A stretch of DNA of 64,000 nt from a virus (IMGVR_UViG_3300038428_000280:21161-85160), one strand, 5' to 3'. Positions 23,867 through 63,086 are shown, counted from the stretch's first letter. Translations and numbers: made by a program. Notes: generated by a model from the letters alone, not told the origin.

Positions 23867-24664
23867 CTATCCGAAAAACGGATTTTCTTTTCTTTTATAA
23901 GAATCAACATTTTTTTTATTAATGTTGACTACACCCAAATTAATTTTTGGAAATTCTTTAATGGTTTCATAACCGCCATCAACTTGTTTTTTCCATTCCA
24001 AATCTTTTTCTTTTGGATAGTCTATTGTCCATTTAACCGTTGATTTGTCAAGCATTTTCCTAGCCACCTTCGACAACGGCATAATGTACCTGAATTGTTT
24101 TCCCCTTATTCTAACGATGCCTTTCGTTTTCATAAAATCACGGGTCAACCAAAATATTTTTTCCTTATTACAAAACTTAGCGTTTTCAACACAAAGGTTG
24201 TGTGCGGTTCTTGGATGAATCTTTTCACCATCAGGGCCAATATAAATGTCTGTCCATATAAAGCCACCATATAAAAAATTGGCAGACTGATAAACATAAC
24301 CACATTTTCCCACAATGCCATCTGCCCAAGTATATAAAAACAATCTTTCCGGCAAATTTATTTTCATCCATTTGACTACTGCTGATAGCATTTGTGACTC
24401 GGAATTTTTTGGCATTTCAGGAAGCATACACATTTTGCCAATTTCATAATAGTCCTTGGTGGTAAGTGCAGGAAAAAGTTTTCGAATGGTCGCAAGGGGT
24501 TGTGTTCCCCAACCAAGAGTCAGAACGCCAACCATTTTATCTCCAATGAATACACCAAGATAATGTTTGGTAAGTCGGGGCATTACTTTTGAGTAATGAT
24601 GTTCTTGAACTAATTCGGCTGCGGTGTATTTGTTTACTTTCTTGATTTTGAAATCAAATTTCAT
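23867..24664 (-). CDS. Mom-like DNA modification GNAT-fold protein
   Basis: EHHYS, EIGKMC...KNSESQMLS, WADG..G..GYVYQSANFLYGG, K.FRY. Confidence 0.7.
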   Translation of the reverse strand: MKFDFKIKKVNKYTAAELVQEHHYSKVMPRLTKHYLGVFIGDKMVGVLTLGWGTQPLATIRKLFPALTTKDYYEIGKMCMLPEMPKNSESQMLSAVVKWMKINLPERLFLYTWADGIVGKCGYVYQSANFLYGGFIWTDIYIGPDGEKIHPRTAHNLCVENAKFCNKEKIFWLTRDFMKTKGIVRIRGKQFRYIMPLSKVARKMLDKSTVKWTIDYPKEKDLEWKKQVDGGYETIKEFPKINLGVVNINKKNVDSYKRKENPFFG

Positions 24665-24669
24665 GAAAA

Positions 24670-24912
24670 TTATTCGGCATCATAAAATCTATCACCATTA
24701 ACATCTGTTATTGGTTTAACATCAGTTGGTAAAGATTCGTCCCACTCAAACTTTGGATGAAAGTCGCCATCACCATCTGCATATATTGTCACTTTGCGGG
24801 ATGCTCCAATTCTGCCAAGATATGCCATGTATTTTAACATAGCTAAAAAATGAGGAACCCACCTATCTTTCATGGTACATTTAATTGTAAAGGTTTTATC
24901 GGTGTCTTTCAT
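24670..24912 (-). CDS. phage hypothetical protein
   Basis: RW..HFL.MLKYM..LG..G.SR....YADGDGDF.PKF. Confidence 0.65.
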   Translation of the reverse strand: MKDTDKTFTIKCTMKDRWVPHFLAMLKYMAYLGRIGASRKVTIYADGDGDFHPKFEWDESLPTDVKPITDVNGDRFYDAE

Positions 24913-25199
24913 AATTTTTCTATCTTTTCAATAAATCGTTTATCACAAGACTCCCAAGATAAGTCACAATTTTGAATATCTTGTTTAAGAATAGTTAATA
25001 CTCTTGATTTACAAAGTTGGAAAGCTATGGTATATCCGTTTTTAAGACCTAAAGAATAACCACTACTAAAAGCATTACTAACATTTTTCTCTTTTTTTAG
25101 ATTGTCTTCATATTCACGCATTTCTGCTTCCGTGCATTTGCATACATCATAATGGTCCCAACAACGGGGACAGTGGCTATATGGTGTTCCTATAGACAT
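24909..25199 (-). CDS. hypothetical protein
   Basis: 96-aa ORF with N-terminal CPRC..CKC. Confidence 0.55.
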   Translation of the reverse strand: MSIGTPYSHCPRCWDHYDVCKCTEAEMREYEDNLKKEKNVSNAFSSGYSLGLKNGYTIAFQLCKSRVLTILKQDIQNCDLSWESCDKRFIEKIEKL

Positions 25200-25201
25200 A
25201 C

Positions 25202-25390
25202 TTACAATTTTTCAATTTTCGTGCTTTCACATTTTATATGGTTATAATAAAAATCGTTACCACAATAAAAGCATTGTATATTTTTAAAACTACTTACATT
25301 AGTAACAATATTTTCAATTTGTGTTGCGCCACACCAAGGGCATTCAACTTTTATCTTTTCCCATTTATTTTTAAATACAGCAACACTCAT
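25202..25390 (-). CDS. small Zn-ribbon protein
   Basis: CPWCG...CFYCG. Confidence 0.6.
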   Translation of the reverse strand: MSVAVFKNKWEKIKVECPWCGATQIENIVTNVSSFKNIQCFYCGNDFYYNHIKCESTKIEKL

Positions 25391-25575
25391 TTTAATGTTT
25401 TTCCAATACTTGGATGGCTCTGAACTTCACTTGTAACAAGATTGCGAACTTTTGAATTGATTCGTTCAAAAAATTCCTTACCCACACGGGTAAAACGTCC
25501 TGCTCGGTTGGCTTTAGCATAGTCCAAAGCAAGTTTTTTAATAGCGGCTCGGTTGATGTACGGGGTTGTATTCAT
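25387..25575 (-). CDS. putative minimal histone-fold protein
   Basis: 62-aa basic protein: short helix (INRAAIKKLA), RV loop, long helix, KTL loop; own promoter. Confidence 0.55.
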   Translation of the reverse strand: MNTTPYINRAAIKKLALDYAKANRAGRFTRVGKEFFERINSKVRNLVTSEVQSHPSIGKTLK

Positions 25576-25583
25576 AATCGGTC

Positions 25584-25612
25584 ATTCTATCATAACCACC
25601 TATTTTAGTCAA
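25584..25612 (-). promoter_or_regulatory. sigma70-like promoter, near-leaderless
   Basis: TTGACT-17-TAGAAT with extended TG; ATG 8 nt downstream. Confidence 0.7.
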
Positions 25613-25631
25613 ATATTATTCGGTATTCATT

Positions 25632-25832
25632 TTAATTCTTGTTTATAAAAACTACACGGCATTCATCATTATGAATGACATACGTTCCCACTATCTTACC
25701 ATCAGCGGGAAGTTCTTTCAGAGGAGTTTCTATATGTAAAATAAACCATCCCTTAACTGAATTGTTGTCAGAGAATCTCTCTAATAAACAATAGGTATTA
25801 TCTTCTTGTTCGGATTTTAAATATTCTTTCAT
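25632..25832 (-). CDS. hypothetical protein
   Basis: 66 aa, ATGA-coupled to the polymerase stop. Confidence 0.55.
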   Translation of the reverse strand: MKEYLKSEQEDNTYCLLERFSDNNSVKGWFILHIETPLKELPADGKIVGTYVIHNDECRVVFINKN

Positions 25833-28447
25833 GCTCCAAAATCAAAAAACTGACTTGCTGTTTTCATCGCTGGATTTGGAAATGTCCACTTGAACACATC
25901 ATAAATTCCATCGTTTTTGCCGTTTGCAAATTTTGATTTTAATTCTTGCTCGAACATCTTTTTTCTGTCCACCAACTGATTTACAAGGTCTATTATTTCA
26001 TCAGGGTCGTTTCCATCACCTTTTAATGCCAAAGCATCAAGACCGTATTGGTTGGTTTGTAAATATACCCATTTGATTTTTTGGCCGTGATGAATGGGTT
26101 CAAAATCTCTTTCCAATCCCAATTTAATCAACAAATCATTATACGCTAACGCGGCTTTGGCTTGAGCGGGAGTGGCCAATTCAAAATGAAATGGCAACCG
26201 ACTGTCGGGGTTATAATTTTTGGTTCCGTCCTGACTTATAAATTTTACGGAAGTGTTCTTTGCTATATCAAGAACATCAAAAGTCTTCATATCTTCCCTA
26301 AATTTGAGAATCATGTCATCCAATTCTTTTTTGGGAACATCGGTCAATAATTTTCTCAAAAAAGAATCCATAAACTTGCGAAATGAAGCTGGAAATGATG
26401 AACGCACCACGTCAATGCCCTTTACTTCCAACCTTGGTTGTTTCAATAAGGCACCTTCTTCATGAATAATCCACTGTGCATATCGTTTCTTAGCCAGCCA
26501 AAACGACGATTTACTGATAACTTCCTGTTTAGCATCAAACGTGTGTTTATTCAAATTGAAAAAACGTTTAGCCATGACGTTATAGAACTGATTCACATAG
26601 CTCTGAACTTCGGTGGTGACGCTCATGATGGCTTTTGTCATGTCATCCTCATTATTCAAATCTATGTTTGGAAATCTCTTCTTGATAATGGGAATTGAAT
26701 CAACAAAACACGAATCGGTATCACTATAAATCACCCAATCACCATCTTCAGCGGTGTCCAAAGCTTGTTTGTAATAAACATTTATTGCTTTTGCGGTAGT
26801 CTTGATGATATCCACACCGGTTGTAGTGACCGCTTCAGCATTATCCACATCATAGAAACGAAACACAGGCAATCCCAAAACTCCATAAAATGAATTAAGC
26901 AAGATTTTCCAAACCGCTTGTCGTTGATTGTAGAAATTATATTGCTCCATGTCACCTGCCTTTTTGAATTCGGCAGCCTTCTTTCTCATGTCTTTGCGTT
27001 GTTTAAACCACAAATCCAACAATATTGGTATCACACCCCTTTTATCCTGCCTATAAAGCACCCCATTGGAAGATAACGAATAATTACATTTTTCAATCCA
27101 TTCTCCAAATTCTTGTGGTGTATAATCAGCCTGACCCACCCGATAATTTGTCAATTCACCCTTTACGTGGGATTCAACCGAATAATTTTCCAGCTTACCC
27201 ACCTTTGTTTCAGGTGATATATTCAAAGAAATGATGATATTGGGATACATGGAAGTTAAATCAAGGTCAAAGACCCAATTATACCTTCCCGGCACGGGTT
27301 CTTTTACAAAAGCACCCGAAAAGCCTTCTTCTCCTTCTTCCAATCTGTCTTCATAATCCTGTCTTCCCTGTGAAGGTTTGTTTGGCGCAATCAAACCACC
27401 ATTGCGTTTCAAATAAATCAGTGTGGCGCCATCGAGATATCTTGATGACATATGAAAGTTATCGTAAGGAACATGGCCGACATGGCAAATGTTTCTAGCC
27501 AAATCAATAAATTTAAGTTTTCTGTCCAACGCTACAACAATTTTAACGTCGGTCATGTTATATTCCAAAAACTTATTGATGTCTGCTTTATACAGGTCAT
27601 TTAAATTACCGTGATACTGAATTTTACCTATACCTACCGTCTTTTGACCTATCGGACCAAGAGCATAAGTGGGTTCCATTTTTCCTGAGAATTTTTTGTA
27701 TAACAAAATGTAATCAAGAACGGATATGCCACCCACGGTTAATTTTTTACTAAAACCGTTTACGTAGGCTGCACCGATGGGTGACAAGCACTTGGCCGCT
27801 TTTGCACCAAGACAATTTTTCAAACGAAGATAAAGATAAGGCATGTCAAAATAATCAACATTCCAACCTGTAACGATTGTGAACGCACACTCTTGCCATT
27901 TATCCATGAAACTTATCAAAAGATTGTCTTCATCGTCAAACGACCTTGTAACAATTTTTACCTTCTGTCTTTCTTCATCAGTGGTAATCTTCCAATCCTT
28001 TGGCAACCAAGGTTCAACTTCCTCTTCCTTGGAATCTATTTTATGGTCTTTATCAAGAATAAACACATAACAGGTCTTGGTCAAATAATCAAATAATGAA
28101 ATGCCTGTAATTTCCTTGTTGGCCGTTTCCATGTTGGGAAACCCACCTTCGGTGGACACTTCAATATCAATAACTCCGACCTTATGTCCTTTGGATGGTT
28201 CGTCCGAATCCACATAGGTATCCATAAGAACTCTCGTTTCGGCTGGAACATCGGATTCAAACAATTCGGGGTCATTATCATTATAGTTGAATACTTTTAC
28301 AAGTTCGTCGCCGTAAAGTGAACGTTCCGGTCCACCTACCTTTTTCTTGTATGCATATTTTGGATAATCAAATGAGGTATAACCTTTTTCGTCATCCCAA
28401 AGATGAACAACCCAATCCTTTTTATTTATGTATATATTCTGGTAAAT
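25829..28447 (-). CDS. family B DNA polymerase (T4 gp43-like), probable non-canonical start at 28447
   Basis: Exo DIEV, GWNVDYFD, YNMTD; Pol DLTSMYP, KILLNSFYG, YSDTDS, KKRY; frame stays open 61 codons upstream of the track start (IYQNIYINKKDWVVHLWDD). Confidence 0.95.
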   Translation of the reverse strand: MYQNIYINKKDWVVHLWDDEKGYTSFDYPKYAYKKKVGGPERSLYGDELVKVFNYNDNDPELFESDVPAETRVLMDTYVDSDEPSKGHKVGVIDIEVSTEGGFPNMETANKEITGISLFDYLTKTCYVFILDKDHKIDSKEEEVEPWLPKDWKITTDEERQKVKIVTRSFDDEDNLLISFMDKWQECAFTIVTGWNVDYFDMPYLYLRLKNCLGAKAAKCLSPIGAAYVNGFSKKLTVGGISVLDYILLYKKFSGKMEPTYALGPIGQKTVGIGKIQYHGNLNDLYKADINKFLEYNMTDVKIVVALDRKLKFIDLARNICHVGHVPYDNFHMSSRYLDGATLIYLKRNGGLIAPNKPSQGRQDYEDRLEEGEEGFSGAFVKEPVPGRYNWVFDLDLTSMYPNIIISLNISPETKVGKLENYSVESHVKGELTNYRVGQADYTPQEFGEWIEKCNYSLSSNGVLYRQDKRGVIPILLDLWFKQRKDMRKKAAEFKKAGDMEQYNFYNQRQAVWKILLNSFYGVLGLPVFRFYDVDNAEAVTTTGVDIIKTTAKAINVYYKQALDTAEDGDWVIYSDTDSCFVDSIPIIKKRFPNIDLNNEDDMTKAIMSVTTEVQSYVNQFYNVMAKRFFNLNKHTFDAKQEVISKSSFWLAKKRYAQWIIHEEGALLKQPRLEVKGIDVVRSSFPASFRKFMDSFLRKLLTDVPKKELDDMILKFREDMKTFDVLDIAKNTSVKFISQDGTKNYNPDSRLPFHFELATPAQAKAALAYNDLLIKLGLERDFEPIHHGQKIKWVYLQTNQYGLDALALKGDGNDPDEIIDLVNQLVDRKKMFEQELKSKFANGKNDGIYDVFKWTFPNPAMKTASQFFDFGA

Positions 28448-28521
28448 AAAATCCCATCCTTCTTTCTTTTCTTGTGTTTCTTGTTTTTCTTTTTATCAAC
28501 CACCAATATTCTTTTTTTCAT
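28426..28521 (-). CDS. 31-aa Lys-rich upstream ORF overlapping the polymerase 5' end
   Basis: MKKRILVVDKKKNKKHKKRKKDGILFTRIYT; ATG overlaps the upstream TGA. Confidence 0.4.
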   Translation of the reverse strand: MKKRILVVDKKKNKKHKKRKKDGILFTRIYT

Positions 28522-28832
28522 AATTCATTCAAATATTTTACAACTTCTTCGCCCAATTCTGCTAAATCTTTTCCTTCGTGAAAATATTCATCAAACAAAA
28601 TAACAAAACCCTGTTCATTGAATTGTTTATATGATGGTAAATCAACATGTGCTGAATTGTCATGAAAATCATCTTCATCACCTAATTCAAAATATACACT
28701 TCCGTTTTTTCTGAATTGACAGATAAATTGCCACTGTCCCAATTCTTGTTTTTTTGGAAATTTCCAAACAAATTCAATATATTCAGAATGAAAACTCTGA
28801 TTGGATAAAAATTGGTTTTGAGGTATGTTCAT
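28518..28832 (-). CDS. hypothetical protein
   Basis: 104-aa ORF. Confidence 0.55.
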   Translation of the reverse strand: MNIPQNQFLSNQSFHSEYIEFVWKFPKKQELGQWQFICQFRKNGSVYFELGDEDDFHDNSAHVDLPSYKQFNEQGFVILFDEYFHEGKDLAELGEEVVKYLNEL

Positions 28833-29082
28833 AATCTTTTGCCTCTTCGGTTGCGGTTTTATTTAATTTGGTCATCAAATTTTTGAATACAACTTGTCCT
28901 TCGGGCGTCAATTTTGATTCATGTTTGGAAAGTTTCTGTAAAAGAACCTCATGCTTGAACCACAAAAGTTCTTTGAAACCTATATCTGTTTTTGGATTGG
29001 TCAATGGTTCCATTACATTGACCACATAAAGAAGAAGTTGAAGCTCTTCCTGCGTTAATGATTGAAGTTGACTAATTCTCAT
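28783..29082 (-). CDS. hypothetical protein
   Basis: ATG 29082 is 8 nt below TATAAT; C-terminal QSEFSF. Confidence 0.65.
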   Translation of the reverse strand: MRISQLQSLTQEELQLLLYVVNVMEPLTNPKTDIGFKELLWFKHEVLLQKLSKHESKLTPEGQVVFKNLMTKLNKTATEEAKDYEHTSKPIFIQSEFSF

Positions 29083-29090
29083 CGTCAATG

Positions 29091-29187
29091 ATTATACTCC
29101 GCCGCAAAAAGAAGTCAATTTATAATATTCGTGTCATTTTCTTTGGTTCTATAAATATTTGACAGATTATGCAAACACTGATAAAGT
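29091..29187. promoter_or_regulatory. divergent pair of sigma70-like promoters
   Basis: Minus: TTGACT(29118)-16-TATAAT(29091). Plus: TTGACA(29159)-17-TAAAGT(29187). A TATTTATA (minus, 29150-29157) lies between them. Confidence 0.7.
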
Positions 29188-29193
29188 AAATTA

Positions 29194-30338: not shown

Positions 30339-30366
30339 TATAAATAACATTTTTCTCAATCTACTT

Positions 30367-30617: not shown

Positions 30618-30630
30618 CTTCTGTTGTTCT

Positions 30631-31149: not shown

Positions 31150-31152
31150 GTT

Positions 31153-33373: not shown

Positions 33374-34075
33374 ATGAAAATACACGTCAAAGATTCAAAA
33401 GATTTAATTATACCTCAAGCCGCCACTCCACAATCCTCAGGCTATGATGTTATAGCCTTGGAAGACCCCAAAATTATAGGAGAACAGGATGGGGCAAATA
33501 TTTGGAAATCAATAGATTACATAGAATACAAAACAGGATTGTTTATTGCTCCACAGCAGGAAATGGCAGCAGTATTTATAAGTTCCCACATTCAAAATTA
33601 CCACACACTTATTTTTCCCCGTTCAAGTGTAAGAAAATATAATTTGGTTTTGGCAAATAGCATTGGATTGATTGATAATGATTACAGAGGCGAATTGATT
33701 TTGTGTTTTAAATACATATGGCAACCGGATGATATGTTTCCATGCGTCGTTCCACTTGATGATGTCACGGGAAGAAAAACCTTGAGAGGACAAATCAATA
33801 TAGATAAAATCTACAAGAAAGGGGACAAAATCGGTCAAGTTGTAGCCGAAGTCACCAATCCCATTGATTGGATGGTGGTGGCAGATTTAACAACTACCAC
33901 AAGAGGAACGGGTGGGTTTGGTAGCACGACATCAACCATTACAGAAAAAAAAATTGAATCGCCGAAAGAAGCTAGTAATTTAATTGACAAATGGAAGAAA
34001 ACAGGAGCGTCGGAAATTCCCACTCCACAAAAATACGAATCAATAATTAAGGAAAGAGAGAAAAAAATCGTATAA
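33374..34075 (+). CDS. dut: trimeric dUTPase
   Basis: SGYD, PRSS, GLIDNDYRGE, GDKIGQ, RGTGGFGST. Confidence 0.9.
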   Translation: MKIHVKDSKDLIIPQAATPQSSGYDVIALEDPKIIGEQDGANIWKSIDYIEYKTGLFIAPQQEMAAVFISSHIQNYHTLIFPRSSVRKYNLVLANSIGLIDNDYRGELILCFKYIWQPDDMFPCVVPLDDVTGRKTLRGQINIDKIYKKGDKIGQVVAEVTNPIDWMVVADLTTTTRGTGGFGSTTSTITEKKIESPKEASNLIDKWKKTGASEIPTPQKYESIIKEREKKIV

Positions 34076-51384: not shown

Positions 51385-51668
51385 ACATGGCTGGCCCCAA
51401 TGACCTATATCATTTTTTGGTAGGAAATGGGTTGGTAGGAATCTGCCCCGAAGCCCAACACATGGTTGCATGCATGGATGTTTTGATCCGCATGTGTGCT
51501 TGCGACCCACAGAAAGCAAAACAAGACAGGCTCAATCAATGCAGACAACATTATATCGCTTTTGTATCGAAGTCACCCAATTTTGCAATTCCATTGTTAA
51601 CCAAAGCCAATGATAATAGAATGCAATTTTATCTTAACAATCAATTGATTGCTACAATTACACGGTAA
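51381..51668 (+). CDS. small Cys-containing hypothetical protein
   Basis: ATGA-coupled start; CACD motif. Confidence 0.55.
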   Translation: MNMAGPNDLYHFLVGNGLVGICPEAQHMVACMDVLIRMCACDPQKAKQDRLNQCRQHYIAFVSKSPNFAIPLLTKANDNRMQFYLNNQLIATITR

Positions 51669-52536
51669 TCCATTTCCACTGTTTAAGAGCTTTCTCCACG
51701 GATTCATGAACAGGCGTCATTACAATTCCTGCTCTTCCCAACTTCTCTGTATTCAAAATGGTATTTGACCGTGGTATTGTGCTTATTTTTTCAAATGCTT
51801 CAATGCTTTCAAAATATTGAAAATTCTTGTCAATGTTCAATATGTTTCGCATCATAGCAGTGATTTCATCGGTGCGAATTCCACCGGGATTTGTAACATG
51901 GTAAATTCCAAATGGAACCGCTTTCATGATACATTCTATACATGCAGTTACCAATTCTTTCCTATTGGAAAGGGAATTGCTTGAAACGACCAATTTATCA
52001 AATTGCATCAATTTGGCTAAATAATTTCGTGGGTGGTTTATTTCATCAAATGGAAGTCTGATTCGCCAAATGTATTTTTTCTCCACATTATTTAACAAAT
52101 CTTCAGCCATTGCTTTGGTACCTGTATAAAAACTGCATTTGGTATTAAATGTCATATTTCTTACATCATCTTCTTCATAACCACCAGCAGGATATCCATT
52201 AAACACACATCCTGATGACATATGACCCAAAATTATATTGCGTTCTTTGCATATTTCACCCAACATTTGTGGAAAAACAACATTCGACTGAATGGCTTGG
52301 TCTTTATAGTCTTCACAATTTACTATGGAATTACCACCCACGTATGCTGCGCAATTAATGATGACGGAAGGTTTGATTCCTTTGATAAGATTGTCAAGTT
52401 CTTTAAATGAATAACCACTACCATCGGCATGTCTTGACGACAATAATCTTATAAGCTTTATATTGGTTAAAGGAAGTAGTTGACTGACGAATTCAGAACC
52501 AATATAGCCATTACCACCAAACAATAAAATTTTCAT
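51658..52536 (-). CDS. NDP-4-keto-6-deoxysugar reductase (RmlD/SDR family)
   Basis: GGNGYIG, INCAAY, SSGCVF, YTGTK (YxxxK). Confidence 0.8.
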   Translation of the reverse strand: MKILLFGGNGYIGSEFVSQLLPLTNIKLIRLLSSRHADGSGYSFKELDNLIKGIKPSVIINCAAYVGGNSIVNCEDYKDQAIQSNVVFPQMLGEICKERNIILGHMSSGCVFNGYPAGGYEEDDVRNMTFNTKCSFYTGTKAMAEDLLNNVEKKYIWRIRLPFDEINHPRNYLAKLMQFDKLVVSSNSLSNRKELVTACIECIMKAVPFGIYHVTNPGGIRTDEITAMMRNILNIDKNFQYFESIEAFEKISTIPRSNTILNTEKLGRAGIVMTPVHESVEKALKQWKWITV

Positions 52537-53285
52537 TGTATTAACCTCGCTTTCCAATCTTTAACCAAAGGTTTTACAAACATTAGTTTTTTTGCAACCT
52601 TGGTTACTTTGTAACCGGAACTTGAGTAATCGCCCAAATACCCACCATATCGTCTTAAGCATTCTTCGGTATCTTCCCTAGCCAATCTGCCTCTTTCACC
52701 TGTTTCTTTTGCCCAAAGCTGAAGGGGCGTTTTACGAATATGGTTGCCTTGAGTTTCACCTATAAATATCCAATTGTCAGCCTTGTAACACGAACCACAG
52801 CGCAATTTATAGTTGTTATATTCTGTTTCTCTTTCAGGCTGAACAAAGGTTTCCAACAAAACAAGGTCATCGCCATATCTTTCTTTCCATTTTTTAGCAC
52901 CTTCAATGCGAAGCTGTTTAAGGGTGGCTGACGCTGCATTTTTTATGGAAATTCTTGGCTGTGCCAAGCAAAACCGTGAATTATTTGCCAAATGACATAA
53001 ATTCCTTATCTTGGTATCATTATTCCAACCTATGAAATTGTCTCTGACCGCTACCGCAATGGTGGCGGAAGACAAGCCGATGGCTCCAATTTGATTTCCT
53101 GATACCGTTTCGTAAACCAACCATCTAAGATTGCGTGTGGGAGAATCGGTATATTTTACATAACTATGAAATTTATTAATGGTGTCTCTGAATATCTTAT
53201 TTTGTGGCGGTGAAGAGCATTCCACCAAATTTACGGATGAATTGGTGTTTACCTTGATATCAAAAAAAGATGCTTCAATGGACAT
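52533..53285 (-). CDS. DUF4338 (DruA-like) / Mom-related GNAT-fold protein
   Basis: FHSY, RDNFIGW, ANNSRF, LETFV, GSCYKADNWIFIGETQG. Confidence 0.7.
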   Translation of the reverse strand: MSIEASFFDIKVNTNSSVNLVECSSPPQNKIFRDTINKFHSYVKYTDSPTRNLRWLVYETVSGNQIGAIGLSSATIAVAVRDNFIGWNNDTKIRNLCHLANNSRFCLAQPRISIKNAASATLKQLRIEGAKKWKERYGDDLVLLETFVQPERETEYNNYKLRCGSCYKADNWIFIGETQGNHIRKTPLQLWAKETGERGRLAREDTEECLRRYGGYLGDYSSSGYKVTKVAKKLMFVKPLVKDWKARLIQ

Positions 53286-53288: not shown

Positions 53289-53699
53289 TTAAGATTTCTG
53301 TGGCACAGGTGCTTTTCGAAGAGTATCTAATTCTTTTGGAAGAATACCTTTATTAATCATATATTCTGTTTCCACAAGACAAAGCACATTCCACGCTGCA
53401 GCGATTGCATGGTCTTCGTCTTTCTCACCATCAGCAAATTTAAACAAATGCCTGAGAGCTGAATCAAGATACCGATTGAGTGGGATGCCTTTTCTCCAAT
53501 TGTCTGCATCGTATTTTTTGGCACCATTCTCAAAATGTTGCGCCAGCCTTGTAATCGCATGAACAGGAAGAAGGTCGAAGCGTCCCTTTCCTTCTTGGGT
53601 ATCCCTTTGAGCACCTGTTACAAATTTATGTCTTTGACCTGAATCTTTTATTACAAATTGCGGGGTCTCATCCCTCATATTCAATTCACTCATATTCAA
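53289..53699 (-). CDS. dATP/dGTP diphosphohydrolase (DUF5664)
   Basis: GKGRFDLLP, GAKKY...NW.KG, DSALRHL, EDH..AA.WN. Confidence 0.85.
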   Translation of the reverse strand: MNMSELNMRDETPQFVIKDSGQRHKFVTGAQRDTQEGKGRFDLLPVHAITRLAQHFENGAKKYDADNWRKGIPLNRYLDSALRHLFKFADGEKDEDHAIAAAWNVLCLVETEYMINKGILPKELDTLRKAPVPQKS

Positions 53700-54241
53700 T
53701 CCTTTTCATCATCATTTCTTTTCATGACGGTTTCAATTTCCTTGTCTGTCAAGCCATATACCCTGCAAAAATCTTCCAATTCCTTTTTACCTTTGTCGGT
53801 GGAATACAGCAAGGTTGCATATTCGGAAGATTCTTTTTGAGAGATTTCAAAATATTTTGATATTAATTCAAGAAGTCTTTTATTAAATGGAACCTTTTTT
53901 GATTTAATCCAAGGATAGAATGATTTGGGATAATCGGCTGGAATCAGGCCAATGAGAAGCTGATATAATTGGGGTGATGGTATTTTATCAAAATACCTAA
54001 ATATGGTGGCCATATCTTCCAATAGCGCCGGATTCATACTTAATGCTTTAAGTATCTTGAAATGATTGAATGATTTTTTATCCAAATCTGATAAATTTTT
54101 GAAATACTCCGGGTCCTGAACAATTCGAATCTGCTTAACATGGTCGAATAAACCAAGTCCTTTTGGAGTTTCAAGTTTCTTCCGTCCCCGTTTCTTTGGT
54201 CCTGATTTCAGGTCTGATTTGTCGTCTGAAAGTTTTGTCAT
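53696..54241 (-). CDS. clamp loader small subunit (T4 gp62-like)
   Basis: LFDHV..I, F..F.I.KALSM, Y..L...IP, F.PWIK pattern. Confidence 0.6.
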   Translation of the reverse strand: MTKLSDDKSDLKSGPKKRGRKKLETPKGLGLFDHVKQIRIVQDPEYFKNLSDLDKKSFNHFKILKALSMNPALLEDMATIFRYFDKIPSPQLYQLLIGLIPADYPKSFYPWIKSKKVPFNKRLLELISKYFEISQKESSEYATLLYSTDKGKKELEDFCRVYGLTDKEIETVMKRNDDEKD

Positions 54242-54606: not shown

Positions 54607-55923
54607 TCAACGGCCTACATCGTTAAAGTATAGTTCTTTAGCTTTTTTATAGGTCATACCCGGATTGTCAAGCTCGTTCATATCACTATAAAACAATTTA
54701 TTTGGTCTTAAACGTCCTTCAGCCTTCAGTTTTTTGTATCTTTCAATAGCTTTTGGACGCCACCAATCCATGATAGCTTTGGTGTCATCTTTAAATAGTG
54801 GCTTCATTATCAATTTATCTTCGGTAATTTTTCTACAAAGAAAATCTCTTGTATTTTCATAAAAACACGAATAATAAACCCCGCGTTCATAACCATGACA
54901 ATAATTCGATTGTTTTATTTCACAAGCTTTAAATATCAACGATAACACTCTCATTTTTGCGCCGGTGACGGGGCCGGAAATGCCTTCCTTCTGTGTCATG
55001 GCAGTTTCATACTCATCCTTCATGTTTTGTTTTAGCCAACCGTGCCAATTACCATAAGCTTCTTCATAGGGTTTGATGGGAATTTTACCTTTGGACAGAC
55101 CGACCGGTTTCCACCATTTAAGACTATTATACATGGAAAATTGTCCATAAAGACTTGTGGTGGTCATACCAACCAATTTGCATCTTTTGGATTTACCCCT
55201 TATTTGATTTTCCCATTCATTTCTGACCACATTGGAAGTTACCAATGCGGCTACAAGTTTTCCACCCAAAAAATTACTTCCAAATGGTTGTGTTGGAACA
55301 ATAGTGGTTCCAATGGCTGAATGTTTTAACATTTTGTATTTCAGTTTATCGTCTTGTGTCCAACCTATGAAATTATCTCTAGCAGAAATTGAAATCACGT
55401 CACTAGCAATTGACGCAATACCCAATATTTTATTCGATAACTCGTCCATCATCAAAAATTTTATGAATCTGCCCGGAGCCTGATTATATTCCGCCGTGCT
55501 ACAATAAATTCTCAAGGTTGTCCAAAGTCTTTCTTGTGATTCATCCACCACGACCACTTTTGGTTTAAGGTTATTAATTTCTGCGATGGTCAATTCTTCA
55601 TCATTAATATCAGTAGGTGCCCATATCCGAGCCTTTGCTATGGTATGAAATTGTCTTACATCGTTGTTTATCAATTGAATTTCTTCGTATTTTTTTCTAA
55701 AAGTGAACTCTTCAACTTCCAATGAGACCAGCCAATTTAAATTATCCACCAATTTTTTCTTATTCTTTTCAAAATCAAAAACTTCTTCATCAGTGACCAA
55801 TTTGTAGGCGTCTCCTGACGCATACTTTCCGGCTGTTGCGTTCATTTTTTTCCGGTCTTCTGCCAATTTCTTTCTGACTTCTTCGGAAAAGGACACACCC
55901 TCTATAAATTCTGATTCATTCAT
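54607..55923 (-). CDS. large DUF4338 (DruA-like) domain protein
   Basis: PGR, RDNFIGW, VPTQPFG.NFLGGKL.A, TTTSLYG..S.Y, G.SKG. Confidence 0.7.
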   Translation of the reverse strand: MNESEFIEGVSFSEEVRKKLAEDRKKMNATAGKYASGDAYKLVTDEEVFDFEKNKKKLVDNLNWLVSLEVEEFTFRKKYEEIQLINNDVRQFHTIAKARIWAPTDINDEELTIAEINNLKPKVVVVDESQERLWTTLRIYCSTAEYNQAPGRFIKFLMMDELSNKILGIASIASDVISISARDNFIGWTQDDKLKYKMLKHSAIGTTIVPTQPFGSNFLGGKLVAALVTSNVVRNEWENQIRGKSKRCKLVGMTTTSLYGQFSMYNSLKWWKPVGLSKGKIPIKPYEEAYGNWHGWLKQNMKDEYETAMTQKEGISGPVTGAKMRVLSLIFKACEIKQSNYCHGYERGVYYSCFYENTRDFLCRKITEDKLIMKPLFKDDTKAIMDWWRPKAIERYKKLKAEGRLRPNKLFYSDMNELDNPGMTYKKAKELYFNDVGR

Positions 55924-55925
55924 AC

Positions 55926-55960
55926 TACTTATATTGTATTATGCCTGAAAATAAAGTCAA
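55926..55960. promoter_or_regulatory. overlapping divergent promoters
   Basis: Minus: TTGACT-16-TACAAT, ATG 9 nt downstream. Plus: TACTTATA late-like motif 7 nt before ATG 55941. Confidence 0.6.
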
Positions 55961-56477: not shown

Positions 56478-56478
56478 G

Positions 56479-56673: not shown

Positions 56674-56703
56674 ACATATGGTATTTTGCGCCTTGTCTAT
56701 GGA

Positions 56704-57111: not shown

Positions 57112-57166
57112 AATTATACCTTCTTTTTATTTTGCTCTTTCATATTCAGAGCCTTATAGAGTCAGC

Positions 57167-57195
57167 ACTGTACTGTAAATTCATCGAATTGTCAA
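57167..57195 (-). promoter_or_regulatory. sigma70-like promoter (leadered, with SD)
   Basis: TTGACA-17-TACAGT; GAAGGT before ATG 57111. Confidence 0.6.
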
Positions 57196-57202
57196 TCTCT
57201 AT

Positions 57203-59413
57203 TTATACTTCTTTCGATAAAAAAAGTTTATTGATGGTTCGAGCAATCTCCACAACGCTTTCCACATCAATGAATTGCGCATCCTTCCCATACATCAAGT
57301 CAAACAATTCCTTTAAGGTCAATTGCCTGTTTTTGCCACGCATGTTGCCGTTTATATTTATTATGGGTAAACGAAGATTTTCTTCCTGAATAAAATAACT
57401 GAGAACTTTTACGCCATGTGAGCGAATCTTATCTATCTGTAATTTGGTGTGCAATGCACCCACTTCGCCGGTATAATTAAAACCGACACCATATCTGTTG
57501 ACATGTGAACGAATGACATAACACGGTTCTCCATCGGAGATATTGAGAAAATAATGGTCTTGTTCCGTGGTTTTTTTGCCAATAATAAATTCTTCTGCAA
57601 TTGCCTCAAAAGCCAATCCCTCGGGTGTTGACCCATTTGCACAAAGATAAGGAAACAACTGCCGCACTTTCGAAATCTTGTCGGTTTTTGAATCATAAGC
57701 CAAAACAATGTAGGGTAATTCAGCATTGTTTCCAAGAGAACTGTATGTGCATATGGTGCTTCTGAATGAGACTGACACTTCCAAATTTTCTACCATTGAA
57801 GCTGCAACACAAATAGCCACCACACATGTCATGGTTGGACACCATTTATAGTCGGATTGCATTGAACCACTAGAATCAACAGAAATATGAAGTCTAGCCT
57901 TGTTATATTTTTCACTTTTCGTTCGGTTAAAAATATGTTCAAAACCGACACCGATATCAGCAAGTAATCTCCTTTCAATTTTCCCTGAATGTTTGCGAAT
58001 ATATTTTGTTAAAACTTCCTCACCGCGAATTTGAAGCTTTCTTCCAAGTAATTTACCCAAAACAAATCCTTTGGCAACGGCTTCATCATAACGTTGTGGA
58101 GGCAAGCTCGTGCCTCCGGGCGCGGACCGGTCTATTGCAGCTAATGGAAAAGTTTCCGTGCCTGAATCAATCAACTGTTTGGTAAGTTTTTTGACCACAA
58201 TGCAATCAACTGCGGCTTGAGTATAATCCCCACTCAAGTTCAAACCGAATCCTGCTGGTAGCAAAACGATTCCGGCCTTTTCGATAGCATCCAAAACCGC
58301 CTCTTGTTGTTTGGTTACGTGTTCCTTGATACCTTCGTAGTTATGGTCAAGAATTTTACGTTGTTGATTCAATTTATCATACAAATCATTCAATTCATTC
58401 TTTGAAAAATTTGTTATATTGCCCGCATCCGCCGGGTCATATTTTACAGGTTCGTTGCCCTTTTCAGTTTGATGTTCATTAGCCTTCTCTTCTTTTGTAT
58501 TTACTTTACCTTCTTCGATGTTTTTTTCATTATTAAGACTACCACTGATGTTACTGTTACCACTCCTATTACTTGGTGAAAGTTTGTCGTGGACGGTTTT
58601 CACCGTAGCATTAGCGGAATTGGGGTCCGGCTCGTCTTTCTGAATTCCCAAATTATCCACAATAATTTCAACAACCTTGTAACTCAAATCCATTCTTTGA
58701 ACCGTTGTTTTTAATCTGAAAATATTTTGAATGTCAATCAATTCAGCAATTTCCCTCAAACCCACCAATGCGTCCAAATCGGTGTCAGGGTTGGTCAAAT
58801 TGATTACACGAACTTCATAAGAAAAAAGATTTGGAATTCTGAACGCATCTGATGTCAACATCTTGGATTGCACTTCACCATTCCAAAATTTTTCATACAT
58901 AGCTTTGTAATAACCTCTGTATCCCGGTGCCTCCTTGAAAATATAACTGTCTATGTATCGGTCTTCGACATAATTCCAAACCCATTTACATAGATGGGCT
59001 ATTTGACCTTCCGATAGATTCTTATCCTTGGCCTTTTTCTTTAAAGAAAGAGGAATGGGAATCGGAACCCTAGAAAACGTGGATTTAGCCACATCAAAAT
59101 CCGTCAATAGAATGTGTGAAGCTTCGTGCAAAGCAACGCCCACCGACCAATCAAAATCGGATTTTTTTCTGATGGAAGCCGATAAATACACCATATTTCC
59201 ATCAGTAAAACTTAAGGTTGATTTTTCTTCGGAACAAAACTGAACGGGAATATCCAAGTGGGTCAAAATATATACAAAATTGGAAACAATACGTCGATAG
59301 GCCGCAAGCTGAATCAGGTCCATTGAGAAACTTCCGTTCCCTTTGGGGATATATTGGTTCAATAAATCCTTATTTAACCAAAAATCGGAATATGATTTTT
59401 CTTGTTCTGCCAT
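57203..59413 (-). CDS. vWA protein with N-terminal HEXXH domain (CobT-like partner of MoxR)
   Basis: FTDG, LHEASH, NYVED.YI, VDSSGSM, GSTPE, ISDGEP. Confidence 0.8.
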   Translation of the reverse strand: MAEQEKSYSDFWLNKDLLNQYIPKGNGSFSMDLIQLAAYRRIVSNFVYILTHLDIPVQFCSEEKSTLSFTDGNMVYLSASIRKKSDFDWSVGVALHEASHILLTDFDVAKSTFSRVPIPIPLSLKKKAKDKNLSEGQIAHLCKWVWNYVEDRYIDSYIFKEAPGYRGYYKAMYEKFWNGEVQSKMLTSDAFRIPNLFSYEVRVINLTNPDTDLDALVGLREIAELIDIQNIFRLKTTVQRMDLSYKVVEIIVDNLGIQKDEPDPNSANATVKTVHDKLSPSNRSGNSNISGSLNNEKNIEEGKVNTKEEKANEHQTEKGNEPVKYDPADAGNITNFSKNELNDLYDKLNQQRKILDHNYEGIKEHVTKQQEAVLDAIEKAGIVLLPAGFGLNLSGDYTQAAVDCIVVKKLTKQLIDSGTETFPLAAIDRSAPGGTSLPPQRYDEAVAKGFVLGKLLGRKLQIRGEEVLTKYIRKHSGKIERRLLADIGVGFEHIFNRTKSEKYNKARLHISVDSSGSMQSDYKWCPTMTCVVAICVAASMVENLEVSVSFRSTICTYSSLGNNAELPYIVLAYDSKTDKISKVRQLFPYLCANGSTPEGLAFEAIAEEFIIGKKTTEQDHYFLNISDGEPCYVIRSHVNRYGVGFNYTGEVGALHTKLQIDKIRSHGVKVLSYFIQEENLRLPIININGNMRGKNRQLTLKELFDLMYGKDAQFIDVESVVEIARTINKLFLSKEV

Positions 59414-59421
59414 GCTTTCAC

Positions 59422-60393
59422 TTATTTGAATGGAATTCTTACCTTACCTGCACGTTTGGGGTCATTGATTGGTGTAGCGGTTTTTGCAGCGCTGACATCA
59501 ATGTATTTTTGGGCAAGTTGTTTTACAAACAAACGTTCACAATCTTGCCCACCATCTTCACTGTAAAGAGGATAAATCGTCATTTCAGCAATTTCATTCA
59601 ATGAAAACCCATCCAATACCAAACGTGCCATTTCAATCACTGAATCGGTGGTGATGAAGGTATTGATTTTTGGATTGTCGTTTTTACATGCCAATTTTGT
59701 TTCCTCCGATATTTTTACAAGTAAATGAAAATGTTCTTTTTGTTTCTCCGTGGCATCAGGAAAAAGAATACCCAACAAACGTTCTTCCTGCTTTGCACTA
59801 AGCACCTTCATTTCAACAATGACGGGAAAACGTGAAGTCAAAGCTTTATCCATTACTCTTGTAGCCGTATATTCATTGCCTATGTTTGCCGTTGCAATAA
59901 ACGAAACGCCTTCAGCAACAGGAACTATTGCTGAATTTTCGGTTTCATCCAATCGAATGTATTTTTGGGTGCTATCCAATACAGGCATCAAAATATTCCA
60001 TGCGTCATGATGTCCTCTTGAGAGTTCGTCCAAAAGAATGATTGCATTGGGAGTACTGATTGCTTTAACAAATTCAGACGAATGAAAAATCGTTCCTTCA
60101 TCCTTTTTAAACGTCGTGTTGCCTATGAGGGTGGCTCTTGCGTCCTGAGTTGAACCAAGATTGAAATAGAAAAATTGCCTTGAATCCGCATAAATTTTTG
60201 CAACCGATTTTGCAGCCTTGGTTTTGCCTGACCGTGTTGGCCCAATAAAAAGAATGTTTTTTCCTCTTACCACCGCCCAAACCAAATACTTCCATTGAAG
60301 GTCATCAATGATTAAGTCGTTGGGTTTCAACATTGTACACTCCGACAATTGTTTTGTTACCTCTTCGTTGGTCATAGAGAATATATTTTCCAT
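59422..60393 (-). CDS. MoxR/CobS-like AAA+ ATPase
   Basis: GPTRSGKT, LLDELSR, FIATAN.G.EY, D.AL.SRF. Confidence 0.88.
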   Translation of the reverse strand: MENIFSMTNEEVTKQLSECTMLKPNDLIIDDLQWKYLVWAVVRGKNILFIGPTRSGKTKAAKSVAKIYADSRQFFYFNLGSTQDARATLIGNTTFKKDEGTIFHSSEFVKAISTPNAIILLDELSRGHHDAWNILMPVLDSTQKYIRLDETENSAIVPVAEGVSFIATANIGNEYTATRVMDKALTSRFPVIVEMKVLSAKQEERLLGILFPDATEKQKEHFHLLVKISEETKLACKNDNPKINTFITTDSVIEMARLVLDGFSLNEIAEMTIYPLYSEDGGQDCERLFVKQLAQKYIDVSAAKTATPINDPKRAGKVRIPFK

Positions 60394-60402
60394 TCACATA
60401 TA

Positions 60403-60430
60403 AGTTTATCATAACCATATAAAAAGTCAA
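60403..60430 (-). promoter_or_regulatory. sigma70-like promoter, near-leaderless
   Basis: TTGACT-16-TAAACT with extended TG; ATG 9 nt downstream. Confidence 0.65.
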
Positions 60431-60435
60431 GCGCA

Positions 60436-60463
60436 AATAAAAACCGTGCAAAAAGCACGGTTT
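60436..60463 (-). terminator. intrinsic terminator
   Basis: AAACCGTGC-A5-GCACGGTTT with T run on the minus strand. Confidence 0.75.
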
Positions 60464-60490
60464 CTAATATTGTTACAACTGAATGATTTA

Positions 60491-62284
60491 TTAGGGCCTC
60501 TTCTTAAGGACAAACTTGGAAGTTTTCTTTTCCGGCACCCTCAACTTTTTATCATTCTTGTGCTTAGGCGGTTTGACTTGAGGCGTTTTTGTAATATTTT
60601 TGTTTTTGGATTCCGGGTCTTTGCCGGGTTCCGTCACCTGCTTCATTGGTTGGTCAGGCATATCCTCATCCCTCTTGGTTTGAGGTTCATTATAGTTTTT
60701 ATCATCCTGCTTGGTATCTTTTACCGAACCGTGTTTTGGGTCTTGATACCTGACACCCACCTTGGCTTTCTCCGGGCCAGCATCCTTTTTAATTACTTCC
60801 TTGTCGTCATAATTACTAAGTGCTTTTTCCCTTTGTTTGTCAGGAATGGTTTTGTTTTTCAAATCACTGAAATTAGCTTTGATGAAATCTTTAACTTGAT
60901 CCCATGTAAGGGCAATGGCTCGAACTCTATCAACCAATTTAACCATCGCATCAACGTCATAATTATTTTCAAATCTTTGAGTAATTCGAACATACAAAAG
61001 ATTTTGTGCTCTAACTATCAACTGTTGATGGTCATCCCAATAAGCTTCCCACGAAGGGTCAATACCTTTAACAAGTGTGTCAAGCTCCGTTTGCTGTTTG
61101 ACGTTGGTTTTACTGAGTCTTGGATTTGGGTCTTTGAAATATTGCTTGTCCGAAATTTCTTTTTCATCCTTGGTTTGGTCAGGTTTACCACTACTCGTAA
61201 GTGTGCTCATTTCATTTAGAACATCCTTGACCACATTACGCAAAGATTCTTTGAGACGCATCCTTGGGTCGTTTTCTTTCTTGATTTCAGAGATACATTC
61301 TCTGATCATGTTTCTGAATTTGATAATTTCATTCATAGGCTTTATTTTATTTGACAAATATTGACGAAGATAGGGATGGTTACTTATGAGTTCAGTTACA
61401 TCTACCCAAGAACCATTATTTAATATTTCATTATCGGGCACTTGATGCACTTTATGTAAATGGGTCAATAGTTCTTCGTCATTACTAAATTCACTGACAC
61501 ACATCTTACATGATGATATCTTTGTAATTTTTTCCGTGGTTAAATTTACAATAGGCCATCTATACCTGTCATGTAAATGTTTAGTAGTTAATACAGCTTT
61601 TTTAGGTGTATCTACTGTAAAATTTGCTACTCCATTACCTGCTATTTTTCCATCTGCACCATAAGCAATAATTGAATATCCTCCCAACAGTTTTTTACTA
61701 ACCACAATTTGGTTTCTATATTTTGGCTTGTTTCCCCATTCATCAAATCTGTCTCTTGGTTCATATTGCATAGGCTCTGTCGGTGGTTTTTGTTTGATGC
61801 CTTTTTTTTTCAAAAGTTGCGTAATGTCCCATCGGTTGGGTTCTTGTGTGGTAGTATCATATTTTGGTCCCTTGATAGTTTCGCCTGTATCTTCACTTAC
61901 AAATTGAACGGCTCTAGGGTATAATAAAGATTTGTCTTTTTTAAACCATTCGACAAATTCCGGCAAATCATATTGGGTATCAAACTCATATACTACTCTA
62001 TAAACACTATACTCTTTCTGCGCCGCAGATTCTATGTCAACCAACACCTGTTTGTCGCGTGGTCCATGTGCTTCTTTAAGTTGTTTCATACCAAATACAC
62101 GGTCATCAGGAACCTTATACTTTGTTTTAAGATATTCCAAATCATTACTTGTTTCTTTTACTTCCGGTTTGCCCTTGCCCATATCACACCAATAACCATA
62201 TTGGTCCAATTCCATCATTTCACCTGTTGCGGTGTTCCTCATTTTGGGTCTTTCTCCCATATCTGTAATAAAAGGTGTCACCAT
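60491..62284 (-). CDS. large multidomain putative virion protein with a C2H2-like motif
   Basis: TATTTATA 6 nt upstream of ATG 62284; IRECISE/LKESL..VLNE helices; CKMC..F.....L..H...H. Confidence 0.65.
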   Translation of the reverse strand: MVTPFITDMGERPKMRNTATGEMMELDQYGYWCDMGKGKPEVKETSNDLEYLKTKYKVPDDRVFGMKQLKEAHGPRDKQVLVDIESAAQKEYSVYRVVYEFDTQYDLPEFVEWFKKDKSLLYPRAVQFVSEDTGETIKGPKYDTTTQEPNRWDITQLLKKKGIKQKPPTEPMQYEPRDRFDEWGNKPKYRNQIVVSKKLLGGYSIIAYGADGKIAGNGVANFTVDTPKKAVLTTKHLHDRYRWPIVNLTTEKITKISSCKMCVSEFSNDEELLTHLHKVHQVPDNEILNNGSWVDVTELISNHPYLRQYLSNKIKPMNEIIKFRNMIRECISEIKKENDPRMRLKESLRNVVKDVLNEMSTLTSSGKPDQTKDEKEISDKQYFKDPNPRLSKTNVKQQTELDTLVKGIDPSWEAYWDDHQQLIVRAQNLLYVRITQRFENNYDVDAMVKLVDRVRAIALTWDQVKDFIKANFSDLKNKTIPDKQREKALSNYDDKEVIKKDAGPEKAKVGVRYQDPKHGSVKDTKQDDKNYNEPQTKRDEDMPDQPMKQVTEPGKDPESKNKNITKTPQVKPPKHKNDKKLRVPEKKTSKFVLKKRP

Positions 62285-62306
62285 ATCTCTTATAAATATG
62301 AATATT

Positions 62307-63086
62307 TCACCCAAAGAATTGATTTTCTGTAGAAGCATCCACTACAATTTCTTCTATTTCATCGGTATGATTGGTGTCTTTTGGATATGCGGAGTTAAAC
62401 GGATGTTTCAGGTTTTTTAAAATTTTCTTTTTTTCCGTTTTACTTCCCAATAAATACACATATCTGTGTTTTGAAGATTCTTTTTTTCTCCAAAAAGTAT
62501 GACCAATTTTTTTCTTTAAATATTCCACATTGTGCGACCCATAGGTTGATGATATGGTTCTCGAATGTATCCATTTGTAGGGTGGCCCAACCAACGACAC
62601 GGAATAATTAGGCATCAAGGCCAAAGAAGAATTGCCTTGGTAATAAAAATTGCACGCTTGATAAATCGTTCCCTTATGACCTTGCTCACCATCCGCATAA
62701 GAAATAACTGCTTTTATATGTGGAAAATTTTTTGCAACAAGTTCCAAAGACCTTGCTATGGAGTAACTTTCAATATTTTTACCATAACCATCATGAATGA
62801 ATAAGCGGGTTAGTTCAAATACTTCATCAATACTAATCAGTTTTGAAATGGATTCAGCCGCAGAACGACCAACCGGTTGCCCAAACACAACACATCCAAT
62901 AAGCTTTTCTTCTTGTGCATCAATAAATTGGCATTGTTCTCCCGTAATATAAAAAATACCATAAGCAACTTGGCACAAAGACCACTTGTGAGAGTAATGA
63001 TATTTTACAATTATTTCCTCGGCCACAGCTTTATCTATTTTTCTAACGACGACTTTACCGGCATCGAAATATTTTTCTTCCGACAT
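62307..63086 (-). CDS. Mom-like DNA modification GNAT-fold protein
   Basis: YHYSH, ELTRL, KNIES..I, ISYAD..QGH.GTIYQACNF.Y.G, KHRY. Confidence 0.8.
   Translation of the reverse strand: MSEEKYFDAGKVVVRKIDKAVAEEIIVKYHYSHKWSLCQVAYGIFYITGEQCQFIDAQEEKLIGCVVFGQPVGRSAAESISKLISIDEVFELTRLFIHDGYGKNIESYSIARSLELVAKNFPHIKAVISYADGEQGHKGTIYQACNFYYQGNSSLALMPNYSVSLVGPPYKWIHSRTISSTYGSHNVEYLKKKIGHTFWRKKESSKHRYVYLLGSKTEKKKILKNLKHPFNSAYPKDTNHTDEIEEIVVDASTENQFFG

Follow-up and report, generated by a model that had tools for sequence, protein, structure and literature searches.

In a 64,000-nucleotide stretch of viral DNA (IMGVR_UViG_3300038428_000280:21161-85160; hereafter the window, numbered from its first letter), two divergent Mom proteins and two DruA-like proteins are encoded amongst genes of the replication machinery, and both Mom proteins end in a short Phe-Phe peptide that resembles the C-terminus of the phage B-family DNA polymerase (PolB). 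From family assignments, protein folds, the identity of the sliding clamp, the conservation and enrichment of the terminal peptides, and synteny with replisome genes, we propose that replisome-embedded Mom- and DruA-type GNATs modify the phage DNA and that terminal peptides like that of the polymerase hold several of these enzymes on the clamp, a proposal to which we give an even chance of being correct. An initial annotation of the window had read these genes as a clamp-riding hypermodification system, and this reading is partly supported by our analysis.

In the mechanism that we envisage, the replication gene blocks would hold GNAT-fold nucleic-acid acyltransferases, comprising the two divergent Mom proteins together with three enzymes of the DruA-like type. 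Homology to Mom from phage Mu suggests that the Mom proteins take an aminoacyl group from a charged tRNA and attach it to a base of the double-stranded phage DNA, which would protect this DNA from host nucleases. Terminal Phe-Phe peptides, EN(P/Q)FFG at the C-termini of the Mom proteins and SFFD at the N-terminus of the short DruA-like protein (P0003), would copy the clamp-binding end of the polymerase and tether these proteins to the PCNA-like clamp, from which the enzymes would scan DNA just behind the fork. As Mu Mom prefers double-stranded DNA, a clamp that stays behind on duplex that has just been synthesized would give such enzymes a suitable platform. The substrate (DNA), the donor, binding to the clamp, and the protective role are each predictions of this model.

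Two divergent Mom proteins

The Mom genes both lie on the minus strand, with type 1 (Mom1; P0001, 265 amino acids) at 23867-24664 and type 2 (Mom2; P0002, 259 amino acids) at 62307-63086. Both proteins matched the Pfam Mom family PF25680 (E-values of 3.7e-53 and 1.1e-43, respectively) with scores of 180.6 and 149.8 bits, above the gathering cut-off of 27.1, and both were assigned to phrog_1384, described in PHROGs as 'Mom-like DNA modification protein'. The solved chain of Mu Mom, 8bv8, was matched directly by Mom1 (E-value of 1.1e-18) and Mom2 (E-value of 2.2e-8). TAL-effector matches to Mom1 were disregarded as weak repeat matches over a 29-residue stretch. The two DruA-like genes, encoding the short protein P0003 (250 amino acids; 52533-53285) and the long protein P0004 (438 amino acids; 54607-55923), are likewise open reading frames (ORFs) on the minus strand. 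The two Mom-like and two DUF4338/DruA-like genes of the initial annotation therefore stand at these positions with Pfam in agreement, although four was an undercount, as a third DruA gene (368 amino acids; Pfam DruA E-value of 2.4e-26) lies on the contig outside the window, at contig positions 16114-17220. The shared motifs that had been described could also be read in the sequences: G..Y.(A/S).N(W/F)...G in Mom1, Mom2, and P0003, and RDNFIGW in both P0003 and P0004.

Residues were placed on Mu numbering by hand from the 8bv8 alignments, with the Mu position equal to the chain index plus 9. This revealed that the equivalents of Mu H58/Y59, S124, D149, and Y159 are identical in Mom1 and Mom2, and that conservation across 67 type-2 Mom sequences is 90% or more at the positions equivalent to R111, S124, D149, and Y159. 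Mom1 and Mom2 are thus conserved, presumably active members of the family. According to the excerpted text of Silva et al. 2026 (PMC13219725), the Mom of Mu, a GNAT, depends on Gly-tRNA(Gly) and acts on double-stranded DNA to give N6-carbamoylmethyl-adenine, a use of charged tRNA for DNA hypermodification that has only recently been shown. The same text lists R111, S124, D149, and R151 as essential, with R151A dead and R111K drastically reduced in activity and nearly dead, and states that a helix-turn-helix-like insertion at about residues 175-209 is required for activity.

Measured against these requirements, two features of the window proteins weigh against our proposal. At the position of R151, Mom1 has Ile and Mom2 has Glu, and the R111 equivalent, while Arg in Mom2, is Lys in Mom1 (K77, which is invariant in 37/37 aligned orthologs). 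The set of R111, S124, D149, and R151 is not complete in either protein, and the region of the Mu insertion gave a gapped alignment with both. Because one Mu-essential residue is not kept, the Mu adduct is not necessarily the product here; the donor, target, or product of Mom1 and Mom2 may differ from those of the N6-carbamoylmethyl-adenine system, and the two proteins, while members of the family, should not be classed as makers of the Mu adduct.

The window proteins share with Mu Mom their Pfam family, a GNAT core, a phage origin, and the retained residues listed above. Mu, however, encodes one late-expressed Mom with no link to the replisome and no Phe-Phe tail, its chain ending within the aligned core, whereas the window encodes two paralogs (22% identical) that are extended at the C-terminus by approximately 50 residues, the last of which form a polymerase-like peptide, and that differ from Mu Mom at the R151 equivalent and, in Mom1, at R111. 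The window genes are also sited in replication operons, with a sigma70-type site before one of them. This site, a 12/12 match to TTGACA-17-TATAAT at 63095-63123 on the minus strand, lies 9 nucleotides before the Mom2 start and was the sole 12/12 match in the two regions scanned. Overall, however, promoter-like sites were no more numerous than in shuffled sequence (53 versus 47 ± 7). A second site, a 10/12 match at 55933-55960 (minus strand), precedes P0004, such that the promoters initially described for two of the four genes correspond to good sigma70-type sites.

Six tRNA genes (Gly-GCC, Gly-UCC, Ile-TAT, Met, Leu-CAA, and Leu-TAA) lie just before the window, at contig positions 19955-20988. 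Two of these six are tRNA-Gly, the type of co-substrate used by Mu Mom, and a link between these genes and the Mom co-substrate is suggestive only.

Terminal peptides of the Mom proteins and the polymerase

Mom1 ends in ENPFFG (23870-23887, minus strand), a candidate clamp-docking tag, and Mom2 in ENQFFG (62310-62327, minus strand). Five of the six terminal residues are identical even though the two proteins share only 21.8% identity overall, and both peptides resemble the PolB tail ASQFFDFGA (25832-25858, minus strand), a likeness already pointed out in the initial annotation. Orthologs of Mom1 were drawn from 80 loci taken from 329 tblastn-confirmed relatives in viral contigs. The Phe-Phe tail was present in 9/9 distinct Mom1 orthologs of at least 72% identity, and a Phe-Phe or Phe-Tyr tail in 11/11 distinct Mom2 orthologs of at least 55% identity; across these close orthologs the residues just before the tail vary while the tail itself is kept (20/20). 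We also counted distinct C-termini with a di-aromatic pair in the last six residues across 160 related loci and this contig. Such ends were found in every PolB (53/53), in 22/47 Mom1-type and 33/87 Mom2-type proteins, in none of the clamps (0/51) or DruA proteins (0/17), and in 63/1636 other ORFs (3.9%).

Conservation beyond the close orthologs is patchy, which counts against a general tethering role. The tail is absent from 25/47 Mom1-type and 54/87 Mom2-type proteins, or about half of the more distant orthologs, and amongst the best 150 matches to the wider family it is found in only 9 of 93 full-length representatives. Because of these absences the tag is lineage-specific, and the tail conservation expected from the initial annotation holds throughout the close orthologs and fails in roughly half of those further away. 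Records of five phages with a tail-less Mom1 ortholog gave no match to the window PolB (P0005) or to the clamp profile (0/5), and a divergent PolB was found in one of the five; as four of these five records are incomplete, absence of PolB or the clamp from tail-less phages is not established.

These data bear on whether the shared tails are functionless, arising by chance or as sequence inherited in a few related lineages. The small number of independent lineages and the loss of the tail from many orthologs would fit such an origin, as would the finding that 13/132 contig ORFs of at least 50 amino acids carry a di-aromatic pair in their last six residues. It accounts poorly for the near-identity of the terminal residues between paralogs that are otherwise 22% identical, for the retention of the tail in all close orthologs next to a varying linker, and for the ten-fold enrichment over background. 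Moreover, in a complete 380-kb phage of an unrelated polymerase lineage, the divergent PolB ends in EEKEYF and a Mom paralog in EEKEWF, an independent instance of the same pairing. We consider functionless tails improbable.

Comparison of the Mom tails with those of the polymerases from the same genomes suggested that tail classes track one another at the level of the class. PolB tails of the form S.FF(D/E)F are paired with ..FFG tails on Mom1 in 9/9 distinct pairs, and genomes with a TLE.FF-type PolB carry TLE-like Mom1 tails (e.g. TLENFF or SLEEFFE) in 4/7 distinct pairs; a fifth TLE-like Mom1 tail, SLYKFFE, is paired with the PolB tail NLEAFFS, which our script placed in the class 'other'. 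Polymerases ending in GFNKFF are paired with tail-less Mom2 orthologs (9/9). A comparable likeness was seen in one relative (L058) between a DNA methyltransferase, which ends in AQHDFF, and the adjoining Mom, which ends in IKHDFF.

Matching at the level of individual genomes was not found, and this too speaks against our proposal. When tails were shuffled amongst 60 distinct PolB/Mom pairs, the observed similarity of 7.07 was close to that of the shuffled pairs (6.90 ± 0.41) and was reached in 678/2000 shuffles, indicating no genome-specific matching between Mom and PolB. Since shuffling left the similarity unchanged, what is shared amounts to a generic Phe-Phe motif and a few tail classes in few independent lineages. 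In two relatives, furthermore, the PolB end NIALVD is unlike the Mom paralog end ITELAF.

The result of the permutation is also what would be expected if the enzymes modify phage DNA while their Phe-Phe peptides either bind another partner common to these proteins, such as the clamp loader, a single-strand-binding protein, the body of the polymerase, or a compartment or scaffold protein, or act within the protein itself. Tails of some Mom2 orthologs (K.FYE, KWKN, and KFI), which differ from those of their own polymerases (ERFF), point the same way. We nevertheless regard this alternative as unlikely, as the excerpted text of PMC2988020 gives the clamp as the only established partner of a T4-type polymerase C-terminal peptide, and the Mom genes adjoin the clamp gene.

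Other candidate bearers of the peptide were also considered. An 80-amino-acid protein encoded upstream of Mom1, which ends in RFYDAE, was rejected as a Phe-Phe tag because its orthologs keep only.[YF]DAG. Other small contig ORFs with Phe-Phe ends (87, 98-99, and 149 amino acids) had no Pfam match and no orthologs in the fetched loci. Tandem arrays of these gene families occur in related phages: L131 carries DruA, Mom, Mom, and DruA back to back at 986-4680, and L108/L110 carry three Mom paralogs in a row at 5997-8335, each ending in K.GKF(I/M).

The sliding clamp and replisome context

The clamp to which the Mom proteins would be tethered is encoded at 21906-22655 on the minus strand (249 amino acids). 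An AlphaFold2 (AF2) model of this protein, with a predicted local distance difference test score (pLDDT) of 93, matched PCNA and other sliding clamps in Foldseek with E-values of about 1e-10, and its profile gave weak matches to PCNA (E-value of 0.01) and the RB69 clamp (E-value of 0.033) when searched against the PDB; no Pfam or PHROG match was obtained. The modelled fold confirmed the product of this gene as a PCNA-type sliding clamp, as initially annotated. The clamp gene is adjoined by a gene for the AAA+ large subunit of the clamp loader (20711-21694, minus strand; Pfam AAA and DNA_pol3_delta2, with a weak match to Gp44_lid), and Mom1 is sited between the clamp and PolB genes, the latter at 25829-28264 on the minus strand (Pfam DNA_pol_B; phrog_262, E-value of 1e-167). 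In distant relatives it is PolB, the clamp, and Mom2 that are contiguous, for example in L159 at 2723-5219, 5281-5998, and 5997-6759, respectively. Polymerases of close relatives extend 61 residues further at the N-terminus than the frame taken here, which starts at TTG, suggesting that the window PolB frame probably starts further upstream.

Terminal peptides of this kind have a precedent in T4. The excerpted text of PMC2988020 describes the C-terminal clamp-binding peptides of gp43, gp55, and gp33 as highly similar, interchangeable, hydrophobic/acidic sequences on variable flexible linkers. As in the T4/RB69 clamp clients of that text, the window proteins carry a short hydrophobic/acidic terminal peptide similar to that of the polymerase on otherwise unrelated proteins. 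The T4 clients named there are the polymerase, clamp loader, and transcription factors rather than DNA-modifying enzymes such as the candidate clients suggested here. We predicted the structure of a complex between three copies of the clamp and Mom1 residues 221-265, which gave scores of 0.48-0.50 versus 0.00 for controls in which the partner was replaced (n = 2) and 0.30 for a control in which the clamp was replaced; as the latter control fell just short of the required margin of 0.20, the prediction argues neither for nor against binding. Mammalian DNMT1 offers a known parallel, being a DNA-modifying enzyme that reaches newly replicated DNA by means of a peptide that binds the clamp PCNA. 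DNMT1, however, is a eukaryotic methyltransferase that uses a PCNA-interacting-peptide (PIP) box, and the phage tails do not have the canonical form of such a box.

PolB in some relatives is present as two ORFs approximately 1 kb apart (L011 4958-8584; L022 6631-9973; L108/L110 764-4293), which possibly reflects insertion of an intein, intron, or homing endonuclease. A ThyX gene with intein and HNH domains was also observed in a related locus (L036 115-1746).

The DruA-like proteins and their neighbourhood

The Pfam and PADLOC DruA models matched all three DruA-like proteins, with scores of 81.8, 97.8, and 93 bits to PF14236 versus a gathering cut-off of 27. The E-values to Pfam DruA were 6.4e-23 for P0003 and 8.5e-28 for P0004, and P0004 additionally matched the PADLOC DruA model (E-value of 6.4e-24) and phrog_19197. 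An AF2 model of P0003, generated from an alignment of 43 sequences, had a pLDDT of 87, and its best PDB match in Foldseek was Mu Mom (E-value of 1.2e-6). Using VIA-align, 8bv8_A was again the top match (Z of 14.4, root-mean-square deviation of 4.3 Å, 175 residues aligned), with ordinary GNATs at Z of 12-14 over 128-152 aligned residues. Because matches within one Z unit are regarded as tied, we describe the modelled structure of P0003 as a GNAT fold whose most extensive match is to Mom, a result that refers to the P0003 model only and that bears out the GNAT relationship to Mom suggested in the initial annotation. DUF4338 is also called a GNAT domain in the excerpted text of PMC10853773. A literature search, which covered few subscription journals and no supplements, found no paper containing both 'DruA' and 'GNAT'.

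At the level of sequence the relationship between the two families is not apparent, a further point against our proposal: when DruA-like profiles were compared with those of Mom in hhalign, the probabilities were 0.7% and 0.4%. The short stretch that could be aligned runs collinear with the catalytic motifs of Mom, which is only suggestive. The DruA profile had no match amongst PDB sequences, and the 437 homologs of P0003, each of approximately 250 amino acids, are all unnamed.

A terminal peptide is also found amongst the DruA-like proteins, here at the N-terminus. P0003 starts with MSIEASFFDI, in which SFFD (residues 6-9; 53259-53270, minus strand) falls within a part modelled with low confidence (pLDDT below 50 for residues 1-12), and a similar peptide occurs within the first 14 residues of 23/43 aligned homologs versus 75/1905 background ORFs. 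The third DruA protein has an LFDF peptide at its start. In P0004 the corresponding peptide, EEVFDFE, is internal (residues 46-52) rather than terminal, which does not favour a tethering role for this protein.

The two window DruA genes lie in a transcription unit with the order P0004, a clamp-loader small-subunit-like gene, DUF5664, P0003, and an RmlD-like reductase. The second of these genes (53696-54241, minus strand; 181 amino acids) matched phrog_225, 'clamp loader of DNA polymerase', with an E-value of 1.7e-10, rather than a nucleotide-pool enzyme, and had no Pfam match; it lies far from the gene for the large subunit of the loader. DUF5664 (53289-53699, minus strand), a dATP/dGTP diphosphohydrolase N-domain, was confirmed by PF18909 (E-value of 5.8e-24) and phrog_801. 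Of the other nucleotide-pool genes that had been suggested nearby, the dUTPase-like match (33569-33928) is weak, and a search of the contig for the NDT family gave no match. A pathway for the Z-base (2-aminoadenine) was also considered and rejected, as PF00709, the family of PurZ and PurA, was matched neither on the contig nor in a relative of 365 kb rated 100% complete, in a search whose control was positive in 14/14 genomes. As this complete relative has no PurZ/PurA homolog, DUF5664 does not belong to such a pathway.

None of the Druantia partner genes (DruB-E) was found amongst the scanned neighbours of the DruA-like genes. Because these neighbours are instead clamp-loader-like, DUF5664, RmlD-like, and unknown phage genes, the DruA-like genes of the window do not belong to a Druantia system. 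They resemble DruA of type I Druantia (DUF4338, PF14236) in their matches to the Pfam and PADLOC models, and differ from it in being encoded by a phage without Druantia partners in the scanned neighbourhood and, for P0003, in its compact form of 250 amino acids, its Mom-like G..Y.A.NW motif, and its N-terminal SFFD peptide.

The gene for the RmlD-like reductase (51658-52557, minus strand) overlaps the end of the P0003 gene by 25 bases. This arrangement, together with the tRNA genes on the contig and the loss of the Mu R151 equivalent from both Mom proteins, raises the question of whether the target of these GNATs is not DNA but, for example, tRNA, a protein, a nucleotide, or a glycan intermediate, in which case their place amongst replication genes would reflect no more than shared early timing. 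GNAT substrates are indeed very varied, and according to the discussion of PMC13219725, as excerpted, structure predicted neither the co-substrate nor the substrate. A non-DNA substrate is harder to reconcile with Pfam Mom scores far above the cut-off and the retention of most catalytic equivalents, and a clamp-type tag would suit a DNA-directed enzyme, the same tag being present on the DNA methyltransferase of a relative. We judge it quite unlikely, and retain DNA as the probable substrate of the Mom and DruA-like enzymes.

A DarG-like macrodomain protein and wider implications

A further gene between Mom1 and the clamp (23081-23626, minus strand; Pfam Macro) encodes a protein that matched DarG in PADLOC (E-value of 7e-35) and in NCBIfam (E-value of 3.9e-34, below the cut-off of that model). 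Its end, ITLDTFI (23084-23104, minus strand), conforms to [ILVM]TL[DE]xF., which is present in 8/8 distinct sequences, comprising the window protein and seven orthologs. While the protein matches the macrodomain of the DarG antitoxin, a DNA ADP-ribosyl glycohydrolase, it differs from DarG in consisting of the macrodomain only (181 amino acids versus approximately 330 model positions, with a score of 118 versus a cut-off of 250), in lacking a DarT neighbour, in being encoded by a phage, and in its conserved TL(D/E)xF end. It may be a clamp-linked remover of ADP-ribose from DNA that counters DarT-type defence, as this conserved end would suggest.

With this protein included, the clamp could be viewed as a toolbelt for enzymes that mark or clean DNA, namely the two Mom proteins, the DruA-like GNATs, the DarG-like protein as a remover of ADP-ribose, and a methyltransferase found in relatives. 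Each would dock through a Phe-Phe peptide similar to that of the polymerase, and the DruA-like proteins would act as Mom-like, aminoacyl-tRNA-dependent DNA modifiers. We put this forward tentatively and hold it to be doubtful in this full form. If it were true, the unexplained DruA of bacterial Druantia could be assigned a biochemical role in marking DNA.

Taken singly, Mom, the GNAT nature of DruA/DUF4338, and peptides that bind the clamp have all been described before. What appears to be new is their combination: clamp-type tags on Mom and DruA-like enzymes, sets of multiple paralogs in replication operons, and a tagged DarG-like macrodomain. The literature search described above found neither this combination nor any paper linking Mom to a sliding clamp. 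Should several divergent Mom and DruA-like enzymes prove to be clamp-tethered, they would illustrate how a virus can couple post-replicative base modification to its replication fork, would open a way to study DruA as an unexplained component of Druantia defence, and, because their active sites differ from that of Mu Mom, would point to new DNA adducts.

Source genome and additional features

The window comprises bases 21161-85160 of the 85,160-bp source contig, for which CheckV estimated a completeness of 25%. A close relative, in which Mom1 is 87% and PolB 86% identical to the window proteins, is represented by a 100%-complete record of 365,299 bp, which contains three Mom and three DruA matches. 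On the basis of the length of this record, the source is a T4-like jumbo phage with a genome of about 340-365 kb (approximately 350 kb). Compared with isolated phages, the window PolB is at most 43% identical, with the best match to Microcystis phage Mel-JY01 and the rest to T4-like phages at approximately 30%. In Mel-JY01, PolB is accompanied by a gene for a 250-amino-acid protein and the clamp loader, with no Mom in the 20 kb inspected, and a megablast search of 21900-28300 against phage records gave no match. Outside the window, near the third DruA gene, the contig encodes a 538-amino-acid protein with DUF2828 and DUF7788 domains (contig 13484-15100, minus strand), which adjoins a gene for an AAA+ ATPase.

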